Shown: positions 19,654-24,509 of the stretch, piece after piece
Position numbering within the stretch: position 1 is the stretch's first letter
Layout of the letters: every line of letters begins with the position of its first letter
DNA from: a virus
Taxonomy: Duplodnaviria; Heunggongvirae; Uroviricota; Caudoviricetes
Direction: 5' to 3' (one strand)
DNA length: 26,042 nt
Virus record (IMG/VR): IMGVR_UViG_2724678986_000024
Location: 1-26,042 of that record
Notes under the pieces: generated by a model
Told to the model about the DNA's origin: nothing
The model's input: the letters and a program-made list of their open reading frames with translations, nothing else
Database searches by the model: none
Translations under genes and position numbers: made by a program

Positions 19654-22490
19654 ATGAGTTTGCATGGAGCTGGAATGAACCACGGCCAGCCATTGATCCG
19701 GCCAGATTTACGGAGCACAGGCAGGAAACTGAAACCGACCTGCAACGCGCCATCCGTTACTACCTTGAGGCAGACAAAAAGGCTCTGGAAGAACAGGAAG
19801 CGAAGGAGGAAGCCTTTTTCGCACAATCCACCGTGGGTAAAAAACTCATGGCATCCCTTGAGGAAGCCGGACAGCGTGAAAAGCTGGCACAAAGCATCAT
19901 CAGCAAGCGTCAGGCAACAGAACAAGACCCGGTGGCCCGTGCTTTTGCCACACTGAAGGTGCTTCCCGTTTATCTGCGTGAACCTCTGAGCCGCCACCTC
20001 TCTTTCCTGCGCAAAAAACAGGAAGCCGATCGCCAGAAAGGCAAAAAGAGCTGGCAGGCTGAACGCTACGCGCGCGGAACCCTGCGCAAAATATTCGAAC
20101 GCCTGGACCGCACCGACCACCGCTGGCTGACACCGGGTTATCGCTCCCTTGCCGGACGCGAACGCCTGGATGATTTGCTTTACCTGCCGCAGCTCAACAA
20201 GCACCAGATACAGACGCTGGCCACCATGACGGCGGCGATGTTCAGCAGCACCTTCGAAAAACTCTGCGATGGCTTTGGCGCGACCGATGGTGAGCTGACC
20301 ATGGAGGTGGCACTGAAGGCGTATCAGATGCTGGCCCGCATGGCGTTACACCTGCACGCCATGCCTCCACATTATGACGCACTGACAACAGACAAAGACC
20401 GCAAGAACGAACCGGACACGGAACTGCTGCCGGGCGCAATCCTCCGCCTGACCTGTGCGGAATGGTGGAAACGCAAACTGTGGCTGTTACGTTGCGAGTG
20501 GCGGGAAGAACAACTCCGCGCCGCCTGTCTGGTTTCCAGAAAAACATCGCCCTATCTGAGCCAGGACGCGTTAAGCGAGTTTCGCGCACAGCGCGAGAAA
20601 ACACGCGATTTCCTGAAAAGTTTCATGCTGGAAAACGAAGACGGGTTCACGATTGATCTCGAGACGGTGTATTACGCGGGAGTAAGTAACCCGGTCCACC
20701 GTAAAGCAGAAATGATGGCCACCATGAAGGGGCTGGAACTTCTGGCCGAAGCCCGTGGCGACAGAGCGGTGTTTCTGACTGTCACCTGCCCGTCAAAATA
20801 CCACGCCACAACAGAGAACGGTCATCCGAATCCCAAATGGAACGGGGCCACCATGCGCGACTCCAGCGATTACCTGGTTAACACGTTTTTTGCGGCGGTC
20901 CGCAAAAAACTGAACCGCGATGGCCTGCGCTGGTATGGCATCCGCACGGTGGAGCCTCACCATGACGGCACCGTGCACTGGCATATGATGGTCTTTGCAC
21001 ATCCGGACGAGATTGAAACCATCGTGTCCCATGTCTGCGATATTGCCATTCAGGAAGACCGCCACGAGCTGGGCGATGACATAACTCCGCGTTTTAAGGC
21101 TGAGTACGTAGACGGCTCAAAAGGCACGCCAACCAGCTACATCGCCACCTACATCGGAAAGAACCTGGACAGCCGCGCCGTGGATGGCATCGACCCGAAA
21201 ACGGGCAAGACACGCGTTGACCACGAAACCGGAAAATCAATGGCAGAGAGCGTGGAACGCGCCATCGGCTGGGCGCGCCTTCACCGGGTCCGCCAGTTCC
21301 AGTTCTTTGGCATTCCCTCTCGTCAGGTATGGCGTGAACTCCGCCGCCTTGCCAGCCAGATGGCACGCAACCCGGAAGGCCCACAACGGCTGAAGGATGA
21401 TGCAATGGATGCGGTACTCGCTGCCGCTGATGCCGGGTGTTTTGCCACCTACATTGAGAAACAGGGCGGCGTACTTGTTCCACGCAAAGACTACCTGATT
21501 CGCACCGCCTACGACCTCGCAGATGAGCTGAACGATTACGGCGAACAGAGCGTACAGATTTACGGGATCTGGTCACCACTCATCGGGGAGTCTTCCCGTG
21601 TGTGCACACATCCGGATAACTGGAAGCTGGTAAGACGTAAACCGGAAGCGGAAGACAGCGCCCGCGAAAATGGTTTTGACCTTCAGGGCGGCCCTGCCGC
21701 CCCTTGGACTCGTGGCAATAACTGTCCCCGTGTACAGGAAACAGACAACAACGGGACAGAACAGCCGGAAGAACGGCCAGCACCGTGGCCGCAGCTTCCT
21801 GACGGCGTTGACGTGAACGAATGGGTGCGCTCACTGAAACGGCACGAACGCCGGGCGCTGATGCGTTCGCTGCGTGACAAACAGGCAAAAAACAGCAGTG
21901 ATGAAATGCAGAACTGGACACAGAGCCGCAAACAGCCACAGCCTTTGCCTGATAACCACGAATTACTCGCTAAAGAATGGCGGGAGTCTGCTGAATCTCT
22001 CGGCCTGCATATCGGTGAACAGCAGATGCAGCACCTGTTACGGGGCGGCAGTCTGTACGTTGACGGCAGCATCATTGCACCGCAGGGATTTGAAATTGTA
22101 CGCAAACCGGATACCCGCCCGGACAGCCGAATCACGCAGCTCTGGCAACGCCTGAGCCGTAACCACGGCGTAAGCAGCACGGAGATCCGCCATAACCCAG
22201 TCGCCAGCTATCTGGAACAACTAGGGGCATCAGACCCTGAAGCCGCCGCACGCCTGGCATCCACACTTCAGCAGGACCAGAACACCATGAAAACACCCGT
22301 TACCGTACTTTCTGACATGCTGCGCGCCATCCGCGACGCAGAGCACGAACAGAGAATCAGTGAAACAACTGAACGCGCCCGCCGCAAAGCAGACCTGCTG
22401 CGGGGTGACCTGACCAGTGGAAACAAAAAACAGACAGAAACGGGATTCACAAATCCCGTAAATGAGCAAAAAACGCGCCGCGAAATATGA
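19650..22490 (+). CDS. P2 gpA-like rolling-circle replication initiation endonuclease
   Basis: Blocks shared with recalled P2 A: TVTCPSKYH, VEPHHDGTVHWHMMVF (HUH motif), TSYIATYIGKN (active-site Tyr). The longer ORF from 19623 is an upstream extension. Confidence 0.88.
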   Translation: MNEFAWSWNEPRPAIDPARFTEHRQETETDLQRAIRYYLEADKKALEEQEAKEEAFFAQSTVGKKLMASLEEAGQREKLAQSIISKRQATEQDPVARAFATLKVLPVYLREPLSRHLSFLRKKQEADRQKGKKSWQAERYARGTLRKIFERLDRTDHRWLTPGYRSLAGRERLDDLLYLPQLNKHQIQTLATMTAAMFSSTFEKLCDGFGATDGELTMEVALKAYQMLARMALHLHAMPPHYDALTTDKDRKNEPDTELLPGAILRLTCAEWWKRKLWLLRCEWREEQLRAACLVSRKTSPYLSQDALSEFRAQREKTRDFLKSFMLENEDGFTIDLETVYYAGVSNPVHRKAEMMATMKGLELLAEARGDRAVFLTVTCPSKYHATTENGHPNPKWNGATMRDSSDYLVNTFFAAVRKKLNRDGLRWYGIRTVEPHHDGTVHWHMMVFAHPDEIETIVSHVCDIAIQEDRHELGDDITPRFKAEYVDGSKGTPTSYIATYIGKNLDSRAVDGIDPKTGKTRVDHETGKSMAESVERAIGWARLHRVRQFQFFGIPSRQVWRELRRLASQMARNPEGPQRLKDDAMDAVLAAADAGCFATYIEKQGGVLVPRKDYLIRTAYDLADELNDYGEQSVQIYGIWSPLIGESSRVCTHPDNWKLVRRKPEAEDSARENGFDLQGGPAAPWTRGNNCPRVQETDNNGTEQPEERPAPWPQLPDGVDVNEWVRSLKRHERRALMRSLRDKQAKNSSDEMQNWTQSRKQPQPLPDNHELLAKEWRESAESLGLHIGEQQMQHLLRGGSLYVDGSIIAPQGFEIVRKPDTRPDSRITQLWQRLSRNHGVSSTEIRHNPVASYLEQLGASDPEAAARLASTLQQDQNTMKTPVTVLSDMLRAIRDAEHEQRISETTERARRKADLLRGDLTSGNKKQTETGFTNPVNEQKTRREI

Positions 22491-22531
22491 AGTGCGCACA
22501 AAACAGGCAAAAGCGGGATTTCAGAATCCCG
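22441..22531. promoter_or_regulatory. Pair of 18-bp palindromes straddling the gpA stop, upstream of the parM-like gene
   Basis: CGGGATT-CACA-AATCCCG at 22441-22458 and CGGGATT-TCAG-AATCCCG at 22514-22531, each followed by TAAA; centres 73 bp apart. Confidence 0.5.
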
Positions 22532-22566
22532 TAAACGGTTAATTAATCAACATAAGGAAAATCGAC

Positions 22567-23526
22567 ATGAAAATTTGTATCGACGACGGCTCCACCAACA
22601 TCAAGCTGGCATGGACTGAGAACGGCGAACGCCGCAACGCCATCAGCCCGAACAGCTTCAAGTCGGAATGGTCTGCGCCGTTCGGTGGCACGCAGCCCGC
22701 GAACTACATGCTTGATAGCGTGCGCTATGGTTTTGATCCGGTCAGCGATCGCTTTGTCCAGACGACTGACACGCAATATCAGTACAGTGATGTGAATGTC
22801 ATTGCCATTCATCACGCGCTGGTCAAATCAGGCATCACGCCACAGGAGGTGGATGTGGTTGTCACCCTGCCACTGAGCGAATATTTCGACACAAACGCAC
22901 AGCCGGACATGGCCAACATCAACCGCAAAAAAGCGAACGTTATGCGCCCGGTGGAATACCAGAACGGCGAAGCATTCACTATCCGTAATGTACGGGTTAT
23001 GCCTGAATCCATTCCGGCTGGCTTTAAGGCACTGGCTGACATGAGTCCGTTTGAATCCCTGCTGATTGTGGATTTAGGCGGAACCACGCTGGATGTGGCA
23101 AAGGTTCAGGGACAACTGGCAGGTATCAGCCAGGTGTTTTGCGATCCACACGTAGGCGTTTCCCTGATGGCCGATGCCGTACTGTCGGTGATGGCCACTA
23201 ACGGTATGCGTACCAGTCACCACATCGCCAATACCATTATTGAGCACCGTCACGATGAAGCCTGGCTGCGCCAGCACATTCACAATGACGCGCATTACAA
23301 CAGCCTGATGGCGGTTATTCGTGAAAAGGAGGAGACACTGAAACAACGAGTGATCCGCGCGCTGGCGGGTTTTTCCGGTTACGGGCGGGTGATGGTTGTC
23401 GGTGGAGGGGCGGAGATTGTGGCACCCGCTATCCGCGAAGCCTGCGGAGTTAATGCGACTTTCATCGCGGACGGGGTGCCACAATTTGCTCTGGTTAATG
23501 GGCTGTACGCAATGAACAAGGAGTAA
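22567..23526 (+). CDS. parM: ParM/StbA-like actin-fold ATPase
   Basis: Shared blocks with recalled R1 ParM: IDDGSTNIKL, ISPNSFK, QYSDVNV, RKKAN, VMPESIPAG, DLGGTTLD, GGGAE; similar length. Confidence 0.8.
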   Translation: MKICIDDGSTNIKLAWTENGERRNAISPNSFKSEWSAPFGGTQPANYMLDSVRYGFDPVSDRFVQTTDTQYQYSDVNVIAIHHALVKSGITPQEVDVVVTLPLSEYFDTNAQPDMANINRKKANVMRPVEYQNGEAFTIRNVRVMPESIPAGFKALADMSPFESLLIVDLGGTTLDVAKVQGQLAGISQVFCDPHVGVSLMADAVLSVMATNGMRTSHHIANTIIEHRHDEAWLRQHIHNDAHYNSLMAVIREKEETLKQRVIRALAGFSGYGRVMVVGGGAEIVAPAIREACGVNATFIADGVPQFALVNGLYAMNKE

Positions 23527-23998: not shown

Positions 23999-24206
23999 CG
24001 TTCGCATTGTGAGCGACAAGATAATTGCGCGGCATTGTCCATGCAAAACGCCCCAATAGCAGCAACTATTGGGGCGTAAAACTCGGTCGGACTCACTTAA
24101 CCTGATATGCGTGCCTTCCGAAGTAAATCAAAATGTGCGTCGTATATTTTATTGCTTACACGCACCTCTGTAAAGGCACGCATATTTTTCCTATGAGGTA
24201 AATAAA

Positions 24207-24476
24207 GTGCGGGCTAAAACAGGTATTTGCAAGAACCCTCATCGTTATAACCCAACATTTCTGTCTCTCCCTGAATATCAAGGACAAGAAGGTCGGCACA
24301 AATGCGCTGCCTGTGCTTTTGAGCTAGGCATAAAAGATGCGCTTGAAGGACGCGCTATGGCTCAGAATGATTTAGTTTTAGCTAACATTCCGTTTAGCCA
24401 GGCTGGAACTGTAAGGCACAGAGATGCCTATGAAGCATATGTTCGTGGTTGGCGATTAATACACAGCAACAATTGA
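24207..24476 (+). CDS. Hypothetical 89-aa Cys/His-containing protein (possible zinc-binding)
   Basis: GTG start with GAGG RBS; residues C8, H12, H31, C33, C36; own promoter and terminator; no family recognised. Confidence 0.5.
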   Translation: MRAKTGICKNPHRYNPTFLSLPEYQGQEGRHKCAACAFELGIKDALEGRAMAQNDLVLANIPFSQAGTVRHRDAYEAYVRGWRLIHSNN

Positions 24477-24486
24477 TACTTTTGAA

Positions 24487-24509
24487 GCGCCGATAAGGCG
24501 CTTTTTTTT
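24487..24509 (+). terminator. Rho-independent terminator after the 89-aa gene
   Basis: GCGCC-GATAA-GGCGC hairpin followed by a T8 run. Confidence 0.8.

Follow-up and report, generated by a model that had tools for sequence, protein, structure and literature searches.

The stretch analysed here, hereafter the window, is the whole 26,042-nt DNA of the IMG/VR virus record IMGVR_UViG_2724678986_000024. We studied positions 22441-24509, at and beyond the 3' end of the phage replication gene A (gpA), where a pair of genes for a ParM-like ATPase and a ParR-like protein (together parMR) is followed by a gene for an 89-amino-acid (aa) Cys/His protein. An earlier note, made from the letters of the window alone, had described these three genes as accessory cargo in the gpA-Q slot of a P2-like prophage, and the three open reading frames (ORFs) were present exactly as it had given them. 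The features that matter for the analysis are the following, by window position.

about 13818-14813: phage integrase gene
19667-22490, plus strand: replication gene A (gpA) as annotated (PF05840, E 1e-129)
22379-22490, plus strand: 3' tail of gpA, encoding a C-terminal extension of about 25 residues, inherited with the par module
22424-22462: candidate parC site 1, a 39-nt unit with the palindrome CGGGATT-N4-AATCCCG at 22441-22458
22497-22535: candidate parC site 2, a 39-nt unit with its palindrome at 22514-22531, 73 bp from site 1
22567-23526, plus strand: parM, actin-like segregation ATPase of 319 aa (Pfam domains, R1 ParM alignment)
23531-23842, plus strand: parR, adaptor protein of 103 aa (PF10784, phrog_2515)
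23843-24512: variable cassette (moron) of 670 bp, which moves as one piece
24207-24476, plus strand: gene of the 89-aa Cys/His protein (WP_001390707.1), with a GTG start and GAGG 8 nt upstream

The window region is 100% identical to many E. coli chromosomes and 94-98% identical to P88-like phage genomes, and the prophage belongs to the P88-like lineage (genus Xuanwuvirus) of the P2 family, Peduoviridae. The genome NZ_CP047378, which is identical to the window over 22441-24509, shows the order chromosomal chpSB, integrase, C-type repressor, cox, small early genes, and then gpA, parM, parR, the 89-aa hypothetical gene, portal and terminase. Since chpSB and an integrase gene stand beside phage genes, the window phage is an integrated P2-family prophage, as the integrase-bearing P2-like prophage of the earlier note implied.

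To assess the partition-like genes, their products were compared with known families and structures. ParM matched the Pfam domains StbA_N (E 8e-82) and ParM C-terminal (E 1e-68), aligned colinearly over its full length with R1 ParM (PDB 1MWK, E 6e-92), and has its phosphate- and adenosine-binding motifs DDGSTN, PES, DLGGTTLD and GGGAE intact. The ParM-like identity therefore held on real alignment and, judged by these matches, the window protein is a bona fide R1-type ParM. The start of parR lies 4 nt past the parM stop codon, and the ParR-like identity was likewise borne out by matches to PF10784 (Plasmid_stab_B, StbB/ParR; E 1e-23, residues 6-71) and to phrog_2515, 'partition protein'. The protein begins with a conserved DNA-binding part (residues 1-66), which is followed by a variable linker, and ends in the conserved motif NIxxLFPE. 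Plasmid ParRs for comparison were collected via plasmid ParM matches, as tblastn of ParR against plasmids returned phage-derived copies only. Those of IncI/K plasmids end in NIKNLFPDDE, and the NIxxLFP(E/D) tail is common to the phage ParR variants despite their divergent linkers; this C-terminus is plausibly the tail that contacts ParM. A second ParR allele (L011 4091-4405; plasmid matches H121-H123) shares the first 18 codons and NIxxLFPE with that of the window and is 54% identical overall, while its partner ParM is almost unchanged and the palindromes are unchanged. By this pattern, the second allele is a product of recombination within parR.

The spread of the locus was examined by megablast of the query 22441-24509 against 5426 complete E. 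coli genomes. The parMR region was found in 1303 of them, about a quarter, at 1451 places, 1449 of which are chromosomal and two on plasmids. The entire query was covered in only 166 genomes; the remaining alignments end at the parR stop codon (23842) and some at parR codon 18, where the second ParR variant diverges. With a query spanning the gpA 3' part and parM, the two were contiguous in 1276 of about 1379 E. coli genomes with a P88-type gpA (about 92%), and 100 or so further genomes had the gpA part without parM. In two such parMR-less P88-like prophages (L013 and L014), gpA leads directly into defence-like cargo, namely three hypothetical genes in one and an AAA ATPase with an S8 peptidase in the other. 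Their homology to the window stops at 22374-22378 and their gpA is about 20-25 residues shorter; thus, the gpA tail, the palindromes, parM and parR make up one inherited block, 22379-23842.

In the phage collection, the matching P88-like phage records have parMR at 95-99% protein identity, and ParM is 97-99% identical among phages and prophages of E. coli, E. albertii, Salmonella and Citrobacter. Compared with seven relatives, parM gave a ratio of non-synonymous to synonymous divergence (dN/dS) of 0.04-0.10 at a synonymous divergence of 0.10-0.22, values by which the gene is under strong purifying selection. Outside the lineage, ParMs in more than 5000 plasmid records reached at most 52% identity to that of the window by tblastn, and the sole other phage ParM in the phage collection, that of phage D6, is 48% identical. 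A ParM scan of species-representative genomes yielded three loci only. One of them, a P88-like parM (97% protein identity), is on a contig labelled Vagococcus sp., a member of the Firmicutes (L010, NZ_JBQPOM010000071.1), which is most likely a contaminated or mislabelled assembly. On this distribution and conservation, parMR is a near-fixed component of the P88-like lineage, old, apparently functional and rarely lost, and not swappable cargo.

The cassette behind parR behaves differently. Its breakpoints by megablast are the parR stop codon and window 24505-24513, where the conserved cos-proximal sequence resumes, which delimits the exchangeable cassette as 23843-24512. It was present whole, with leader and gene, in 166 genomes, and partial-cover matches were not found; P88, 569R5 and pZ1323PEC0009-2 have other, unrelated genes at this position. 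Cargo is expected to differ between otherwise near-identical prophages, which is the case for 23843-24512 alone and not for parMR. By these comparisons, 23843-24512 is the only exchangeable cargo in the slot and a self-contained moron. Therefore, the description of the locus as accessory cargo stands for 23843-24512 (166 genomes, swapped elsewhere) and falls for parMR (1276 of about 1379). The comparison of the slot among relatives, on which that description had been made to hang beforehand, showed parMR to be a conserved core part of the lineage, with the variable slot starting at 23843.

The locus itself was not new. That the gpA-Q interval is a recognised variable site of P2 agrees with passages of Rousset et al. 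2022 (PMC9122126), which define the gpA-gpQ interval as the P2 hotspot and mention a putative partitioning system in about a fourth of P2-like phages. A supplementary table of the same work lists StbA, Plasmid_stab_B and a hypothetical protein, with the accessions WP_000211267 and WP_001390707 as in the window; parMR in this slot, including the three-gene arrangement, is thus already reported. Those parts of the source count all gpA-gpQ content as hotspot, in contrast to the present resolution of parMR as near-fixed and of 23843-24512 as alone exchangeable. In the P88 record (NC_026014), gp17 and gp18 have been annotated since deposition as ParM and partition protein, which go undiscussed in the P88 paper. 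A partition cassette in a P2-like prophage, which the earlier note had called unexpected, is therefore both near-fixed in the P88-like lineage and already on record. In the literature passages and supplementary tables searched, we came across no experiment that tests either the partition system or the 89-aa gene.

A partition system of this type needs a site for its adaptor. The two 39-nt units with their 18-bp palindromes occur as two exact copies only in the 26-kb window, with 0 expected by chance; the first lies inside the last codons of gene A and the second 36 bp upstream of the parM ATG. Both sites are kept in eight relatives. Among the loci fetched, the palindromes were present in all nine that cover the gpA-parM junction and in none of 110 others, L013 and L014 included. 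We consider the two palindromes a candidate, albeit atypical, parC. It is possible, although we rather doubt it, that they are not a centromere, but either form RNA hairpins in the processing or stability of the gpA-parM transcript or serve another protein, the ParR site being elsewhere or absent. Each palindrome can indeed form a stem-loop of 7-8 bp (the scan lists minus-strand hairpins), and a pair of copies does not resemble the iteron arrays found in the parC regions of plasmids and D6. On the other hand, the palindromes travel with the par module and are absent where it is absent, no second repeat family was found near parMR, and the sequence downstream of parR is variable cargo.

With a colinear ParM, parR immediately downstream and repeats upstream of parM, the system resembles the type II partition system ParMRC (StbA/StbB) of plasmids R1 and R100. 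It differs from them in lying in an integrating phage, joined to the 3' end of replication gene A, and in an upstream region of 76 bp where two 18-bp palindromes take the place of iteron arrays. Furthermore, a crude scan recognised no promoter in the site region of the window, such as the autoregulated promoter in parC, and ParR has 103 aa with a truncated linker compared with about 140 aa in plasmids, a divergence too great for tblastn. Phage D6 is a plasmid prophage. Its StbA/StbB pair includes the only other phage ParM, the similarity of which to P88 StbA was noted by the D6 annotators; D6 differs in its P1-like genes, in the TCTCA-type repeats of its 270-bp upstream region and in having a ParA-like gene nearby.

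Between 18858 and the 3' end of parR, no plus-strand terminator-like site was found, except for a weak one at that end (23811-23824), and a consensus scan, crude enough to miss a weak promoter, gave no plus-strand sigma-70-like promoter between gpA and parM. Upstream of the block of two ORFs, gpA, parM and parR lie a terminator-like site (18761-18776) and promoter-like sites (18671-18822). Because neither a plus-strand terminator nor a promoter-like site for parM was found, parMR is probably co-transcribed with gene A, at the distal end of the unit that holds it. Such co-transcription would mean that parMR is expressed after infection or induction, together with the early and replication genes, rather than in the quiescent lysogen. 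ParR would then bind the CGGGATT-N4-AATCCCG sites, and ParM filaments may move or separate circular phage genomes, either while these replicate or in the interval that precedes integration or follows excision. As a working model we take AlpAC of the integrated prophage CGP3, which is induced early and needed for efficient phage replication, its adaptor binding upstream of the operon (PMC4446434), and whose filaments are attached to circular phage DNA (PMC4446434; PMC5539076). The likeness to AlpAC/alpS of Corynebacterium glutamicum CGP3 lies in an actin-like ATPase and a DNA-binding adaptor from an integrated prophage; the host there is Gram-positive, and the two are likened by role and arrangement, not by comparison of the AlpC and AlpA sequences.

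Another reading, suggested in passages of Rousset et al. (PMC9122126), is that parMR, like R1 parMRC, keeps the phage as a low-copy plasmid prophage or lends stability to a carrier or pseudolysogenic state. It would account for a ParM/ParR pair that is complete and under purifying selection, and for the nearest phage relative outside the lineage being StbA/B of D6 with its P1-like genes. The PLSDB record NZ_CP148288.1 (34,461 bp, circular) is moreover an entire P88-like genome, which shows that an episomal state can occur and speaks for plasmid maintenance. Nevertheless, we hold plasmid maintenance to be unlikely. With 1449 of 1451 copies in complete E. coli genomes on chromosomes, a plasmid prophage is improbable as the normal state, and a role on the circular genome is favoured; the PLSDB matches are mostly to very large replicons. 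A phage-plasmid has an autonomous replicon, and the window copy, by contrast, is integrated beside chpSB with its integrase kept; its parMR sits in the gene A transcription unit with no recognisable promoter of its own. In P2, that unit is repressed in lysogens, and A-dependent rolling-circle replication is unlike a plasmid-type replicon. The third proposal, that of the earlier note, casts parMR as an actin-like module turned to phage exclusion or defence, in keeping with its place inside the gpA-Q defence hotspot and with the minority of P88-like prophages that hold defence-like cargo directly at its position, but it gained no support and is very improbable, as PADLOC gave no match to ParM or ParR, ParM is colinear with R1 ParM with its motifs intact and about 50% identical to plasmid ParMs, adaptor and repeat sites are retained, and the pair is near-fixed and slowly evolving while the adjoining cargo gets swapped.

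Two observations concern the plasmid records. The 34,461-bp circle NZ_CP148288.1 (L006, pZ1323PEC0009-2) also carries a Hok/Gef gene and a Com/methyltransferase pair beside ogr, and parMR is found as well on a 26.8-kb Shigella boydii 'plasmid', NZ_CP049283.1.

The 89-aa protein matched phrog_3941, a family of unknown function. A word-indexed search with the single sequence returned 2 clusters only; an alignment seeded from two phage homologues gave by profile search a large uncharacterised family of at least 782 clusters, mostly stand-alone proteins of 81-92 aa, from Enterobacterales, Orbales (Frischella, Gilliamella), Arsenophonus, Bacteroidota, Elusimicrobia and Desulfovibrionales. No Pfam domain was found in the stand-alone members. 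In an alignment of 107 members, R30, H31, C33, C36, S64 and R70 are invariant and C8, H12 and H71 nearly so, which upholds the Cys/His character seen in the letters. The motif LPxSQGGxGRHKCxxCAYxxG is followed by a degenerate second copy without cysteines, and from its conserved residues the protein is probably zinc-binding. Modelling by AlphaFold2 of the single sequence was unusable, with a predicted local distance difference test score (pLDDT) of 44; with the 107-sequence alignment, the pLDDT was 86 and the predicted template modelling score (pTM) 0.81, and the model shows two beta-hairpin-plus-helix units. The model had no structural match, and searches of solved structures with the sequence and with the profile gave nothing significant. 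The fold appears to be new and is confidently predicted.

The same domain occurs in longer proteins, once or twice and N-terminal to NOV_C/DUF3883 and HNH_2 nucleases, and also C-terminal to DndB-like domains and a WYL domain. PADLOC matches in these fused relatives fall only on the partner domains (PDC-S36, PD-T4-1, HNH, DpdB, WYL). Tandem duplications and fusions include P0121 (182 aa), P0165/P0189 (264-277 aa), P0181 (282 aa) and P0152 (890 aa); in P0181 and P0152 the domain is joined to long Pfam-less regions that could hold further effector domains. Stand-alone homologues lie immediately after cI-type repressors, before N, in lambdoid prophages of Salmonella, Frischella, Cronobacter and a Yersinia-type group, and in the last of these beside a BstA (KilA-N/BstA_C) gene. 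In a Providencia phage the homologue stands between the Q antiterminator and the lysis genes, and in Bacteroidota-like contigs a Dam-type methylase and a DUF6996/6997/7226 gene precede it with a 20-nt gap, in an operon-like arrangement. These positions are classic sites of lysogen-expressed exclusion genes and restriction-type operons. The likeness to lambda rexAB and to BstA of BTP1-like phages is one of position, the homologues occupying the same cI-N interval in four lambdoid lineages; they differ in having no sequence relationship to Rex or BstA and in consisting of a single small gene with a predicted RNA regulator.

The cassette has signals of its own, which are the following.

23960-23998, plus strand: sigma-70-like promoter of the 89-aa gene, with GATC at 23960-23963, -35 TTGACA at 23971-23976, -10 TAAGAT at 23993-23998 and a 16-nt spacer
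24043-24139, minus strand: predicted small RNA of about 97 nt, encoded in cis and antisense to +39 to +135 of the 5' untranslated region (5'UTR) of the 89-aa gene
24048-24077, minus strand: 3' stem-loop of the predicted antisense RNA, followed by UUUUG
24146-24174, minus strand: predicted promoter of the antisense RNA, with -35 TTTACA at 24174-24169, a 17-nt spacer and -10 TAAAAT at 24151-24146
24484-24512, plus strand: intrinsic terminator of the 89-aa gene at the right end of the cassette, a strong hairpin (24484-24504) followed by T8

The view of the 89-aa gene as a separately transcribed unit with promoter, leader and terminator was sustained at the level of sequence, the promoter and terminator being backed by conservation in relatives. 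In 48 of 49 distinct homologue leaders (90 loci), GATC stands 5-8 nt upstream of a promoter of the form TTGAnn-16/18-TAnnAT; this conserved GATC hints that expression depends on the methylation state. The homologous leaders compared for this GATC (Dam) site come from L004, L005, L015, L023, L029, L032 and L040-L119, and most family members have GAGATCTC or TGATCA at the predicted start of the antisense RNA, where the window has neither. Just upstream of the window promoter lies an AT-rich imperfect dyad (23910-23969; 26-nt arms, 73% complementary), and CAATTATCTTG and CAAGATAATTG at 23963-23973 and 24017-24027 flank the promoter in an operator-like arrangement.

The leader of the 89-aa gene is about 200 nt long (5'UTR of 202 nt), and alignment of the ~300 nt upstream of the gene from seven lineages revealed an unexpectedly conserved non-coding leader. 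By blastn, the window leader had no DNA similarity to the other leaders, its kinship residing only in the architecture and in the hairpin common to L072-L076. The leader alignment contains an invariant TGTAAAG about 35 nt before the start codon, which reads TTTACA on the opposite strand. The arrangement TTTACA-17-TAnnnT was present in 41 of 41 distinct motif-bearing leaders, a count biased by the anchoring on TGTAAAG; three further leaders have the variant AAGTAAAG in its place. The predicted antisense RNA folds with a z-score of -4.0 and contains a GC-rich minus-strand hairpin, the stem of which varies in sequence between lineages with pairing kept.

A covariance model built from 13 sequences located the element in every phage-type locus, each time on the minus strand and where it was expected, with E values of 1e-6 to 0.01 for non-seed loci. 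In the hairpin alignment, 91% of the cells are paired and 8 of 10 pairs changed on both sides; doubly changed cells numbered 49, compared with 14 ± 3 in shuffles, none of 500 shuffles was as good, and in slid registers pairing drops to 58% or less. As the alignment was fitted to the covariance model, these covariation numbers are somewhat inflated. RNAalifold on a 22-sequence MAFFT alignment missed the hairpin because that alignment was misaligned, and per-sequence, subgroup and covariance-model analyses were used instead. The window hairpin is identical to that of loci L072-L076, and only the hairpin of the window matches the model, indicating that the 5' half of its predicted antisense RNA has diverged.

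No Rfam 15 family covers the leader or antisense RNA in the window, nor the leader region of seven related loci. Matches in the window to ctRNA_pGA1 and sar (22 bits compared with gathering scores of 43-45) and to gyrA RNA were sub-threshold and discarded as generic hairpins. A 44-aa minus-strand ORF (23962-24096), which starts inside the predicted antisense RNA and has a hydrophobic N-terminal half, was weighed as a possible small peptide and put aside, since it encloses the covarying RNA hairpin. Elsewhere, a viral contig (L106, 2804-2893, minus strand) matched Rfam sRNA-Xcc1 with 59.9 bits, over the 53-bit gathering score, ~1 kb downstream of the small-gene homologue.

The predicted antisense RNA, about 97 nt long, most likely keeps the level of the 89-aa protein low. 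Because the layout reads as tight negative antisense control, the product may be harmful, and because its domain is fused to restriction-type nucleases, DndB/DpdB and WYL and occurs as stand-alone copies at exclusion-gene positions, we suggest a tightly controlled, nucleic-acid-directed exclusion or toxin-like function following the logic of type I toxin-antitoxin systems. The locus symE/symR is a cis-antisense type I toxin-antitoxin locus. The cassette resembles loci of that type in its predicted opposite-strand RNA in the mRNA 5' region, with a predicted promoter of its own and a terminal hairpin, and in a soluble protein; it differs in that the predicted RNA stops short of the ribosome-binding site and in that the Cys/His domain matches no known toxin family.

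Instead of an exclusion factor or toxin, the protein could be an anti-defence decoy that mimics a nuclease sensor or DNA-binding domain, or a small C-protein-like transcriptional controller. We give this alternative a minor share of belief. It draws on the NOV_C and HNH nuclease proteins in which the Cys/His domain forms one or more N-terminal modules and on the operon-like homologue behind the methylase in Bacteroidota-like contigs, and it sits poorly with the phage copies, which occupy places of lysogen-expressed morons (behind cI or within the P2 hotspot) and have their own promoter and terminator, and with an elaborate negative antisense control that is more typical of harmful products. 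It is also conceivable, but quite unlikely, that the conserved elements of the leader work on the plus strand, forming a structured 5'UTR of the attenuator or riboswitch kind, and that there is no antisense RNA. The plus-strand leader also folds well (z-score -3.9), and a 13-nt long-range stem (24105-24117/24173-24185) lies just upstream of the ribosome-binding site. Three features nevertheless point to the minus strand: 28 distinct hairpins with 284 Watson-Crick pairs have 10 G.U pairs in the minus orientation compared with one in the plus; TGTAAAG with TA at 17-nt spacing reads as a minus-strand sigma-70 promoter in every lineage; and the T-run after the hairpin exists on the minus strand only. 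The arms of the long-range stem, ATATGCGTGCCTT and AAGGCACGCATAT, form a perfect inverted repeat in the 5'UTR, the 5' arm under the predicted antisense RNA and the 3' arm ending 10 nt before the ribosome-binding site, so that the repeat could be a switch coupling antisense pairing to translation.

Taken as a whole, we lean moderately towards reading the locus as a par module serving circular phage genomes next to an antisense-controlled, exclusion- or toxin-like moron, two unrelated neighbours. Several points weigh against this. The candidate parC comprises two palindromic sites in 76 bp and the gpA tail, compared with upstream regions of 270-400 bp with repeat arrays in the plasmid and phage D6 relatives, and the phage sequences are 96% alike, too close for selection on the palindromes to be assessed. 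Promoters and terminators were scanned for by crude consensus matching. The predicted antisense RNA of the window matches the family model in the hairpin only (E 0.13), and the U-tract after that hairpin is short. Finally, type I toxins are typically short hydrophobic peptides, whereas the 89-aa protein is hydrophilic, and it matched nothing in PADLOC, Pfam or NCBIfam; PADLOC-DB v2 at E <= 0.1 gave nothing for ParM, ParR or the 89-aa protein.

A bolder and more doubtful extension would make the cassette a widespread, undescribed type I toxin-antitoxin-like exclusion or abortive-infection module with a soluble protein, found at the rex position and in the P2 hotspot of Enterobacterales and Orbales and, separately, ParMR the first actin-like organiser of integrating coliphage genomes. 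The new-fold Cys/His protein and the conserved predicted antisense RNA appear to be undescribed so far, and the 670-bp cassette could yield a regulatory RNA and an exclusion or toxin family that are both new. With the gpA-Q hotspot divided into a fixed par module and a short exchangeable slot, defence cargo of P88-like phages can be sought more precisely. The timing of ParMR expression and its cargo would show whether actin-like filaments serve phage replication or the establishment of lysogeny in a tractable E. coli system.

Some further features of the window lie outside the parMR-cassette region, of which one is a phage gene next to it.

24964-26010, minus strand: portal gene

The gpA gene, labelled frameshifted by RefSeq in NZ_CP047378, is a single unbroken ORF in the window (19623-22490), with the earliest in-frame start a GTG at 19623 and the annotated one at 19667. 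The integrase end of the prophage adjoins the chromosomal chpS/chpB toxin-antitoxin pair and ppa (window about 12932-13527), and the attachment site therefore lies within the chpB-int interval. In the early region, accessory-looking genes for a MarR-family regulator, an Ea22-like protein and an SPFH-domain protein occupy 17041-18624 on the same strand; after them come the terminator-like site at 18761-18776 and promoter-like sites, and then a gene named 'derepression protein' in the P88 and cS51a records. Upstream of the portal gene, 24905-24958 contains a palindrome (24913-24937) and scored 22 bits with Rfam 'gyrA RNA', the gathering score of which is 45 bits. The cos-proximal conserved region has long inverted repeats, 24487-24511 being paired with 24608-24632.

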